Below, piece by piece: positions 8,723 through 11,136 of a stretch of 64,000 nucleotides of DNA (within the stretch, counting starts at the first letter, position 1; every line of letters begins with the position of its first letter). The translations under genes and the position numbers were made by a program. Origin of the DNA: Escherichia phage vB_Eco_J-01; the sequence record PQ438393.1; one strand, 5' to 3'. Below the pieces are notes generated by a model. That model did no database searches. It worked only from the letters and a program-made list of their open reading frames with translations, and was not told where the DNA came from.

Positions 8723-11136
8723 TAAGCATTATTGACAGTAACAAAAGTAACAGGGTTCAGAGCTTTAATTTTTGTATTCTCTGCTGTAGGTGTTACAATT
8801 GGATCTGCAATATCTATTGTGTACAAACTATTTGTCACATATGTTGCACGTGCTATAGTTGTCACAAGATCGCCACCATTTGCTCCTGCACCTGGAATAA
8901 CAATCTTAGTACCTGCTGCTTTAGCGTAGCCATTACTAGCCCAGTTTAAAGCATTAGACTGTAGATAGGTTTGACCTGTAACAGTTGCTTTTATTTTCTC
9001 GTTGTCACTAAAGAAAGCACCACCTACTGTAACAACATGTTTTTTACCGCTTGCACAATGAATAACTGTTCCAGTAGGGAATTCACGCCCACCTGGGAAT
9101 TCATCATAAGCTGTAAAATATTGTTCAGAAATAGTAGTTAAAACTGGCCCACGATGACCTGTACCATCAACAGCAGTTGGAACACCAAAGTTATTTCCAA
9201 CCTGATCGCAACGATCAGTGTAGATTTTAGCAAAAGAAACTGTTGTTTCATCTCCGCTAAGTGCTGTACATCCTACCCACTTCATATACGTGAATTGGCT
9301 GCGAGTATAGAAACCGCCACCACTTCCTTCTCCGCTTCCATGTTGACCAATAAAGTCAATACTACGGCAACGAATGTTATTAAAGGTAGAGCTAGATGGT
9401 AGCCCACGCCATTTAAAAACATTACAATTGATGTTACTAACAATTGTAGAGTTTTCCCAGGCATCTGATCCAGCCGTTGCAATCTCAATTGAAGATTCTG
9501 GAATATCCAAATTCTTAATTGTAAAGTTAATTGGTGGCCCCGCATATCTTCCACTGTTAACACCCCAGTCAATAAAGACCATACGTGTTGAAACAGACGG
9601 ATCATTGAGCAGATAACCAGTTAAACCATCAACTTCAAAGTCTTGGCATCCGTATAATGCAACACCACAAGTAGTTAAACCTGTACCTGTTGAAACTGCT
9701 GTGTTAGGATAAACTTCATTATCACGTATTGTGAAGTTTTTACCCATTTCAACGTGTAAACATTGACGGCAATTGTAAACCCTATTCCCAATGATACTGA
9801 AATTACGTACATATTGTGAATCAGGAACATCAACACCATATGGGCCACTACCTGCTACACCAATACCAATACCCCAGTTTGCCCCTTGTCCAGAAGCATC
9901 TACGTTAGCAATGTGGTTATTCTCGATGATCAAACCTTCAGTGTAGTGTTTTTGAACTACGTTAAGTTCAATAGCATCACCTTTGATATCGTGAATGTAG
10001 TTGTTAGAGTAACGCCCATAGGTCATTACTTCTCCAGTACCTTGTTGCAGGATCGCATATTTACAACCATACATTTCGTTGTAACTGAAGTCCAACGTAC
10101 CTTCGCTTGTCATTGCTTGCATTAAAAATGCTGCTGTAGATGTTGCGTTGGAGAAGATATTACGATAGAATCGGCAATCACCACCTAACATCTTAACATA
10201 ACATTTTTCAAAGCGAACGTTTTCAATCCAACAGGACACAGTAGAAATCATTGTTCCACCGTTACCAGTGAATGTACCACCATACCAACGAATACCAGAC
10301 ATAGCAATTGAGCTTGTGAATCTATAATTCTTATCTGCACGTACTTGAATGTTATTCGTGTTAGCGAAAGTAATGGTTTTTAAAATTGCTTGAGTATCAT
10401 CGGTAACTCCATCCCCAATTGCACCAAACTGCTCAGGCGTTACAAAGTATTGAGCTTGTAACAGGTTGCCTCCAGATGGAAGACCAACCATTGCTGCACC
10501 AGTGGTAGATGACAAAAGGTTTTTCTCTACGTAAGAAGTAGAGGCTGTTGTTTTACCAATAAAAGCAAACAATTTGTTAGGTAGACCAGTAGACGGATCT
10601 AAACCTAATGGTTCTGCCAGAATAATTTTACTATCTTTGATAGTAAATGCTTCACCTTGAATCTGAATTACACCGTTAATGGTGACAATAGCATTATCAA
10701 AGATATAAGGAGGACTGATTTCTGTTTCATATCCTGTAGCACCTTTAAAATACCAAGGATACACATCTGAAGCTAACTGTTCAGTTTTAAGAGCGTACAG
10801 AGTCCAGTTACTGTCTCCTACAGGTGTGCCCTGCATAGGTACAGGGTTCGCAGTAGTGGCAGATGGGGCATAATAGTACCCACTCAAGATACCGTTTTCA
10901 AAATAACGTAACTGGTTAAATACAGTTTCAGTTGATCCTGCTGACCAAGCAACAGGACTCTTAAAGAAGAAGTTATCAACAAGTGCTTTACGCAGTGTAG
11001 GTATTAAACCTGTTTCGGTTTCTACAGTTGCTGTAGCATCCCCATTAATAACATCATGCATCTGGTTAGACGAGAATATAACCAGATCAACACCTTGTTC
11101 TAGTGTCGTAGCAGGATATGTTGGAAAATTCGCCAT
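8722..11136 (-). CDS. tailspike with pectate-lyase-like right-handed beta-helix (putative depolymerase)
   Basis: 804 aa; FGAIGDGVTDDTQAI, the typical entry motif of pectate-lyase-fold tailspikes; repetitive beta-rich body. Confidence 0.65.
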   Translation of the reverse strand: MANFPTYPATTLEQGVDLVIFSSNQMHDVINGDATATVETETGLIPTLRKALVDNFFFKSPVAWSAGSTETVFNQLRYFENGILSGYYYAPSATTANPVPMQGTPVGDSNWTLYALKTEQLASDVYPWYFKGATGYETEISPPYIFDNAIVTINGVIQIQGEAFTIKDSKIILAEPLGLDPSTGLPNKLFAFIGKTTASTSYVEKNLLSSTTGAAMVGLPSGGNLLQAQYFVTPEQFGAIGDGVTDDTQAILKTITFANTNNIQVRADKNYRFTSSIAMSGIRWYGGTFTGNGGTMISTVSCWIENVRFEKCYVKMLGGDCRFYRNIFSNATSTAAFLMQAMTSEGTLDFSYNEMYGCKYAILQQGTGEVMTYGRYSNNYIHDIKGDAIELNVVQKHYTEGLIIENNHIANVDASGQGANWGIGIGVAGSGPYGVDVPDSQYVRNFSIIGNRVYNCRQCLHVEMGKNFTIRDNEVYPNTAVSTGTGLTTCGVALYGCQDFEVDGLTGYLLNDPSVSTRMVFIDWGVNSGRYAGPPINFTIKNLDIPESSIEIATAGSDAWENSTIVSNINCNVFKWRGLPSSSTFNNIRCRSIDFIGQHGSGEGSGGGFYTRSQFTYMKWVGCTALSGDETTVSFAKIYTDRCDQVGNNFGVPTAVDGTGHRGPVLTTISEQYFTAYDEFPGGREFPTGTVIHCASGKKHVVTVGGAFFSDNEKIKATVTGQTYLQSNALNWASNGYAKAAGTKIVIPGAGANGGDLVTTIARATYVTNSLYTIDIADPIVTPTAENTKIKALNPVTFVTVNNA

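Follow-up and report, generated by a model that had tools for sequence, protein, structure and literature searches.

A 44-nt Identity Between Two Tailspike Genes of Escherichia Phage vB_Eco_J-01 as the Probable Footprint of Short-Patch Gene Conversion

The subject of this analysis is a 44-nucleotide (nt) segment that occurs in identical form in two tailspike genes of Escherichia phage vB_Eco_J-01, within a stretch of 64,000 nt of sequence record PQ438393.1 (hereafter the window). One of the genes encodes a colanidase tailspike and the other a variable tailspike (hereafter gene 2). The identity is probably the footprint of a recent, non-reciprocal short-patch conversion, in which at least 24 and at most 44 nt of the colanidase gene were copied into gene 2. 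The comparison that carries this reading is with the sister phage alia, in which the unconverted state of gene 2 is kept.

The Shared Segment and the Two Tailspike Genes

The genes and segments on which the analysis turns are as follows.

8722..11136, minus strand: colanidase tailspike gene, homolog of phi92 gp150, 804 amino acids (aa), conserved genus-wide; putative donor of the patch
15720..17444, minus strand: gene 2, variable tailspike gene in the slot of phi92 gp143 (endosialidase), 574 aa, pectate-lyase-like beta-helix, PF12708 at residues 61-110; putative recipient of the patch
10385..10428, minus strand: donor copy of the 44-nt segment, colanidase codons 237-251, FGAIGDGVTDDTQAI, with the minority GGG allele at Gly241
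17206..17249, minus strand: recipient copy of the 44-nt segment and maximal converted tract, gene-2 nt 196-239, codons 66-80
17212..17235, minus strand: minimal converted tract, gene-2 nt 210-233, motif positions 15-38, with six substitutions relative to alia, P0001, P0022, and P0002 (GGT>GGG, GCT>ACC, ACA>ACT, GCA>CAA)

The exact repeat proposed in the original prediction is real, and its first copy lies at 10385-10428 as given there; the second copy, which had been placed at 17226-17269, is found 20 nt away at 17206-17249. The flanks do diverge immediately, as had been claimed, with identity extending 0 nt to the left and 0 nt to the right of both copies, and both fall within the open reading frames to which they had been assigned, on the minus strand. 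Beside the repeat the two genes are near-random with respect to each other, with mismatches at 41 of 60 positions upstream and at 50 of 65 downstream. On the plus strand the 44-mer reads ATTGCTTGAGTATCATCGGTAACTCCATCCCCAATTGCACCAAA and has exactly two occurrences in the window, where no further long exact dispersed repeat was found. Both copies start at codon position 1, with a Phe codon, and encode FGAIGDGVTDDTQA followed by the first two bases of an Ile codon. They are direct repeats on the same strand, 6821 nt apart, and baseplate genes lie between them.

Phi92-like myophages of the genus Justusliebigvirus match the region at 97-99% identity, and on this identity the window is assigned to a phage of that kind. 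The colanidase gene is found at full length, with 98.1-100% nt identity, in 55 phage records annotated with colanidase or colanic acid degradation; it has 98.7% nt identity to phi92 gp150, and residues 180-804 of its product align to PDB entry 6e0v ('Bacteriophage Phi92 gp150') with E=0. The enzymatic activity ascribed to the predicted colanidase is taken from the literature (PMC13450770). In Pfam there is no PF12708 match for the colanidase, the motif of which matches PF12218 (End_N_terminal) only below the cut-off (17.2 vs 26.3). For gene 2 the PF12708 (Pect-lyase_RHGA_epim) score is 47.9 bits against a gathering cut-off of 27, and membership of this family is claimed for gene 2 alone. It is nevertheless reasonable to describe both genes as beta-helix tailspikes, as had been done from the sequence, given the PF12708 match of gene 2 on the one hand and, on the other, the identity of the first gene with phi92 gp150 (PDB 6e0v) and a WcaM-type Pfam match precomputed on its homologs of identical length.

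Comparison With Phage Alia

The only full-length match to gene 2 in the phage collection is that of phage alia (99.4%), and the gene order around gene 2 is the same in alia, L006, and L023. Of 1725 nt, 10 differ between the window and alia, at gene positions 35, 210, 220, 222, 231, 232, 233, 244, 1078, and 1575. Six of these ten differences are found inside 24 nt (gene-2 nt 210-233), within the 44-mer, and at all six the window has the colanidase base, so that alia's TTTGGTGCAATTGGTGATGGAGTTGCTGATGATACAGCAGCAAT (FGAIGDGVADDTAAI) is turned into the sequence of the colanidase. The probability of at least 6 of 10 differences falling within 24 nt was 5e-7 by simulation, and that of all six matching one given donor by chance is (1/3)^6. 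Three of the six changes are silent or in the third codon position (GGT>GGG, ACA>ACT, and the third base of GCT>ACC) and cannot therefore be accounted for by convergence at the protein level or by selection for A74T and A78Q, the two residue changes that the patch brings to gene 2, both of which are probably neutral. In alia itself the two genes have 38-39 of the 44 nt in common at the motif, including an exact block of 14-24 nt.

Once the patch is set aside, gene 2 and its alia counterpart are 99.8% identical, whereas the flanking genes are at about 98%, which indicates that the event is recent and that the gene itself has recently moved between lineages. One further difference lies 5 nt past the patch.

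17201, minus strand: private substitution A>G at gene-2 nt 244, Ile82>Val; the base is A in alia, P0001, P0002, and P0003 and at the aligned colanidase position

There is no colanidase template for this substitution, which may be either a by-product of the conversion event or an independent single-nucleotide polymorphism.

It could be argued that no DNA was exchanged at all, and that purifying selection on a conserved peptide, together with codon bias, gave identical nucleotides by chance. At their N-terminal end, the matched beta-helix regions (PF12708, the AlgE epimerases, and the Sf6 tailspike) do indeed have this peptide motif in widely conserved form, and part of it is written in common codons, namely GAT (0.78), CAA (0.73), and TTT (0.62). 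The segment, however, also contains the rare codons GGG (0.11), ACC (0.09), and GGA (0.22), and under the codon usage of this phage the probability of identical codons for the same 14 residues is about 1.9e-5. Other tailspike genes (P0002, P0003, P0004, and P0026, the last with TTCGGAGCTGTCGGCGACGGTGTGACCGACGATACCGCCGCATTT) write the same motif with 9-15 nt differences, while T74 and Q78 are derived relative to all 17 relatives and the six changes from alia are clustered and all match the donor. Chance, codon bias, and protein-level convergence were accordingly rejected on the codon statistics and on the comparison with alia, P0001, and P0002, and such an origin is scarcely credible. The original prediction had held that synonymous differences in the motif of homologous phages would point to selection on the protein only. 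Such differences do occur, but it is this very variation that exposes the conversion.

Polarity and Donor of the Conversion

To read the direction of the change, every other gene with the gene-2 beta-helix or linker whose DNA was retrieved was compared. The sequence GATGATACAGCAGCA is carried by alia, P0001 (L006, L016), P0002, and P0022, with P0003 one base off; P0002 and P0003 have the same beta-helix on an N-terminus resembling that of Ackermannviridae TSP2. The string VTDDTQAI was found in none of the 17 other proteins with the gene-2 beta-helix, and the exact gene-2 protein of the window was not found in a collection of 15 billion proteins. On the side of the colanidase, ACC...ACT CAA is present in every copy examined except that of L006. 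From the alia state in the related genes and the ACC...ACT CAA of the colanidases, it follows that the transfer ran from the colanidase to gene 2 and took place in the lineage of the window. The reverse polarity, with the state of the window as ancestral, was rejected on the alia-type state of the related genes and on the absence of VTDDTQAI from the 17 proteins. The T7-like tail fibers of P151 and Sarma103 (47% identity) were also tried as outgroups and proved uninformative, having no FGAxGDG match. The recent gene conversion that had been proposed is thus borne out by a sister phage that retains the unconverted state and by clustered substitutions that match the resident colanidase.

The codon for Gly241 allows the donor to be narrowed. 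It is GGT in most colanidases and GGG in both the colanidase and the gene 2 of the window. The exact 44-mer is present in three of 61 phage records, including Antha and PaulScherrer, and the other 58 have one or two mismatches. Among contigs, GGG was seen also in L015 and L026 and GGT in 14 others, and every differing colanidase 44-mer that was read has GGT. The GGG allele thus makes up about 6% of all colanidase copies seen, and this is the chance with which a random colanidase donor would have supplied it. A single difference in 2415 nt separates the colanidase gene of the window from that of Antha, and the motif of the window colanidase recurs unchanged in those of Antha, PaulScherrer, L015, and L026. 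As the colanidase was left unaltered, the event was non-reciprocal.

A donor on another DNA molecule also has to be considered, that is, recombination between phages in a co-infected cell with the colanidase of the other phage, or an unsampled allele of the gp143 slot, as template in place of the colanidase on the same molecule. The locus has clearly seen such traffic: divergence from alia is ten times lower in gene 2 than in its flanking genes, which speaks for recent inter-phage exchange there, the gp143 slot is highly mosaic, and GGG-type colanidases were available in Antha, PaulScherrer, L015, and L026. A donor other than a colanidase was, however, nowhere seen. In 50,697 phage records the 44-mer occurs in no gene besides the colanidase, the exact 44-mer has no match in IMG/VR, and a wobble-tolerant pattern of the motif run over IMG/VR, the JGI metagenomes, and the GTDB genomes gave six loci, all of them colanidase or already-known P0001-type genes of the gp143 slot, with no second converted genome. 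The donor allele is moreover the minority allele resident in the window, and if the colanidase of another phage had served as template, the event would still be, mechanistically, an ectopic conversion from a colanidase. We therefore regard an inter-phage donor as unlikely and favor the resident colanidase. A genome in the state before conversion, combining the exact colanidase protein of the window with an alia-type gene 2, was not found in the 10 places shown of 17 contigs with the identical colanidase, which have other genes in the gp143 slot or none.

Possible Further Exchanges at the Motif

The one exceptional colanidase, that of L006, may record a conversion in the opposite direction. Its motif (contig JAIFII010000027.1, 17068-17112) has a private ACC>GCT change at codon 245 (T245A), which is the state of the P0001-type gene 2 of L006 itself; the variant is present in no phage record, the best matches being three mismatches away, and the case is suggestive. 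P0045 and P0046 (574 aa, 14 contigs) differ from alia at 12-13 residues, 9-10 of which fall in residues 60-92 around the motif (FGAKGDAVTDDTVAI), and at the level of the protein they have the appearance of a common allele with another mosaic patch at the same place.

These two cases also bear on the question of whether the patch could be an artefact of assembly or polishing, with reads from the colanidase motif misplaced on gene 2, or a path through the assembly graph crossing at a shared k-mer, to give a chimeric consensus. The two loci already had an exact block of 14-24 nt in common, the patch is known from one assembly only, and the exact gene-2 protein occurs nowhere else, all of which speaks for an artefact. 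The patch has the resident colanidase allele, though a real event predicts this likewise. Unique flanks abut the 44-nt segment, however, so that reads of at least 100 nt and k-mers of at least 21 should be anchored unambiguously, and L006, an independent assembly, has a partial exchange in the opposite direction, while P0045 and P0046 have another patch around the motif in 14 contigs. An artefact is considered very unlikely, and the patch is taken here as a product of conversion.

It is conceivable, with a small but real likelihood, that the colanidase motif acts more generally as a resident master copy, from which repeated short-patch conversion would keep the 5' joint of the variable slot identical at the nucleotide level across Justusliebigviruses. 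The resident variants of the gp143 slot all have motif positions 1-20 in common with each other and with the colanidase, and four of five have positions 1-24 in common, which is not so for this module when it stands on an Ackermannviridae scaffold. If true, concerted evolution of a recombination 'adapter' would preserve the homology needed for the capture of new enzyme modules, and the nucleotide sequence of the joint would itself be under selection.

Proposed Mechanism

The patch is located in the sequence for the motif FGAxGDGxxDDTxAI, at the N-terminal end of the beta-helix region, and for pairing with the donor the flanks offered identity over no more than 14 nt (5' side) and no more than 6 nt (3' side). 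The pre-existing microhomology of 38-39 of 44 nt could have allowed pairing between a nascent or invading strand and the ectopic copy 6.8 kb away; the paired strand would then have copied the colanidase motif and returned, by template switch or by synthesis-dependent short-patch conversion. A reciprocal crossover between the direct repeats would delete the intervening baseplate genes, and only non-crossover products would therefore be viable. Such short flanks favor a template switch primed by microhomology, or synthesis-dependent short-patch repair, over a canonical RecA-type exchange, although we only infer this step. The RefSeq annotation of alia names a recombination-associated exonuclease (RdgC-like), another exonuclease, a ligase, and a family-A polymerase, these being functions by name only.

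The Motif as a Joint for Module Swapping

Gene 2 is built from a conserved anchor (nt 1-129), a linker (nt 130-195), and the motif (nt 196-239), with PF12708 starting at residue 61. Alignments to solved beta-helix proteins have their N-terminal end at the motif, from residue 3 in the AlgE epimerases and from residue 42 in the Sf6 tailspike.

17316..17444, minus strand: conserved N-terminal anchor of the gp143-slot gene, nt 1-129, 43 aa, 93.8-96.9% identity
17250..17315, minus strand: linker A, gene-2 nt 130-195, ...TNTGVVAAGSDTPRTLSDRFADVFNVKD, common to genes with unrelated catalytic modules
15582..15597, minus strand: terminator-like hairpin CCCCTCTCTGGAGGGG with T-run, 123 nt downstream of the gene-2 stop, from a terminator scan

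The anchor is all that gene 2 has in common with phi92 gp143 and with the many other Stephanstirmvirinae records listed; among about 58 listed records of Justusliebigvirus, Phapecoctavirus, and related phages (of 167 records that matched the gene), all anchor matches stop at nt 129. Examined as an endosialidase of the phi92 gp143 type, gene 2 has a pectate-lyase-like helix in place of the catalytic domain, and it is thus predicted to fill the gp143 slot with a different enzyme. Upstream of the motif, P0022 (another beta-helix) and P0024 (an endosialidase) have linker A in near-identical DNA, and a different linker, B, is present in P0001 and P0025.

That the segment serves for the swapping of receptor-binding or depolymerase modules had been suggested in the original prediction, and five independent mosaic junctions among natural genes of the gp143 slot, all between motif positions -10 and 43 (53 nt), lend substance to the suggestion. 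For this mapping eight natural gene variants of the slot were anchored on the motif, with position 1 being the first T of TTTGG, and each junction is seen as a sharp shift from near-identity to unrelated sequence.

Motif -10/-9: alia vs P0001 (different linker, same helix)
Motif 20/21: P0001 vs P0025 (same linker B, different helix)
Motif 25/26: alia vs P0002 (Ackermannviridae-type N-terminus, same helix)
Motif 35/36: P0022 vs P0024 (same linker A; beta-helix vs endosialidase)
Motif 42/43: alia vs P0022

In keeping with this, BLAST endpoints place the end of the homology of the window to L006 at 17258 and the start of that to L023 at 17215, so that the overlap of the two is confined to the motif. 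Linker A is found with at least three catalytic modules, linker B with at least two, and the gene-2 helix with at least four N-termini, and they are always joined at the motif. The comparisons support the motif as the joint that has been used, time and again, to combine N-terminal anchors and linkers with different catalytic modules. At the other end, L023, with its different module, becomes homologous again exactly at window position 15597, and the hairpin at 15582-15597 thereby marks the 3' edge of the exchangeable cassette.

The beta-helix module of gene 2 was also encountered outside the gp143 slot. It is found on an Ackermannviridae TSP2-like N-terminus with 94-95% aa identity in L007 and L010 (P0002/P0003) and in P0049, for which L037 (TSP2 of Salmonella phage SenALZ1) may be compared. 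Further occurrences are on 547-aa proteins, in L009 (P0004, 77%) next to genes for holin and endolysin, and in the T7-like tail fibers of P151 and Sarma103, where identity is 47%. Judged by these matches, the module travels across phage families.

Points Weighing Against Conversion and Joint Exchange

A number of points have to be set against the interpretation given here. The full patch is present in one genome only, that of the window, and the sequence is at the level of a consensus, where an assembly chimera is formally possible. A donor on the same molecule is indistinguishable, from the sequence, from the colanidase of a co-infecting sibling phage. Flanks of at most 14 and 6 nt are far short of what RecA-type homologous recombination usually needs. 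The reverse patch in L006 is only 2 nt long and adjoins an ACT>ACG change left unexplained by gene 2. As for the joint, the clustering of junctions may reflect selection for functional chimeras at a domain boundary and not a raised rate of recombination.

Neighboring Genes and Other Features of the Window

Next to gene 2, at 17453-19612 on the minus strand, is a gene for a 719-aa protein that has, besides a Calx-beta domain, both the N-terminal domain and the TIM-barrel domain of the family 'non-contractile tail sheath protein' (E=1e-81), a family name that is unexpected for a protein from the baseplate region of a myophage. In L020 (phage Antha), L027, L030, and L031, the colanidase protein is identical to that of the window, yet the tailspike gene of the gp143 slot is wholly missing, and the neighboring Calx-beta/non-contractile tail sheath protein is 691 aa long in these genomes as against 719 aa.

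Within the gene at 6719..8680, repeats with a 9-nt period at 7326-7846 encode a collagen-like Gly-X-Y stretch in a gp151-like fiber (Pfam matches Collagen and Tail_spike_N). A cluster of 16 transfer RNA (tRNA) genes, including three for tRNA-Met, two for Leu, and two for Ser, is located at 42391-45136 on the minus strand. A near-identical GC-rich hairpin with T-run, AAAGGGGCTTTCGCCCCTTTTT, is present at 8696-8725 and at 59722-59751, in inverted orientation and 51 kb apart, and these are probably reused terminators; a similar pair of hairpins is found at 2666-2691 and 3828-3853.

Relation to Known Systems and Significance

Ectopic gene conversion and templated clusters of mutations are known from the concerted evolution of the tuf genes in Salmonella and from the template-switch mutations of the Ripley type in the rII genes of phage T4. 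The case described here resembles these in that a cluster of substitutions matches an imperfect repeat elsewhere in the genome while the donor is unchanged. It differs from classic conversion between paralogs, which involves long homologous genes, in that homology is limited here to one 44-nt motif of genes that are otherwise unalignable, and it stands nearer to the template-switch class. In T-even phages, short conserved motifs in the distal tail-fiber genes reportedly act as crossover points at which segments for specificity are swapped between phages. Those are the His-box or glycine-rich motifs of gp37/gp38, and the exchange is between genomes, whereas the motif described here opens a beta-helix enzyme domain and the patch is a non-crossover product between two positions of one genome.

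For lytic phages, Pas et al. (2023, Virol J, PMC10408124) put forward conserved DNA motifs that flank the receptor-binding domain (RBD) of tailspike genes as recombination hotspots. These motifs are conserved over six genera, with three receptor-binding proteins (RBPs) of Justusliebigvirus among those included and the RBP of alia discussed, and are said to aid the swapping of RBDs (PMC10408124). The likeness to the present locus is that the 5' joints are here found at the segment coding for FGAxGDG and the 3' joint at a terminator hairpin, which resembles 'motif three' of that work. Their 'motif one' may be this segment or might instead be the end of the anchor, at nt 129 or earlier; VKDFGAVGDGVTDDT at the end of the N-terminal domains of a Kuttervirus TSP2 is compatible with the former. 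The hotspots of Pas et al. were inferred from conservation (63% mean identity), while here junctions were mapped and an intragenomic patch was found, which Pas et al. do not describe.

In an Ackermannviridae phage of the genus Kuttervirus, nucleotide similarity between tsp genes led to the replacement of tsp4's receptor-binding domain by that of tsp5 (Sørensen et al., 2024, iScience, PMC11414711). Common to both cases is recombination between paralogous tailspike genes of one genome. The case of Sørensen et al. concerned an engineered phage, counter-selection by clustered regularly interspaced short palindromic repeats (CRISPR), long homology in the XD domain, and the swap of a whole domain, whereas the present event is natural, with microhomology of at most 14 nt and a patch of 24-44 nt. 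Both conversion and joint exchange are thus known in kind, and what is new is a natural short patch, at nucleotide resolution, between two tailspike genes that share a genome but are otherwise unalignable, along with the mapped junctions.

On this reading, at most 14 nt of flanking identity sufficed for DNA to be transferred between otherwise unrelated tailspike genes in one genome. With the 5' joint in a motif of some 50 nt where the beta-helix region starts and the 3' joint in a terminator hairpin, motif and terminator offer natural cut points for the engineering of chimeric tailspikes. Engineered phages with several motif-bearing beta-helix tailspikes can be expected to exchange patches, and recoding of the motif would stabilize them. 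The host range of phi92-like 'Swiss-army-knife' phages is set by exchangeable tailspikes, and this locus shows such exchange at nucleotide resolution, which refines the picture of tailspike exchange and does not change it.

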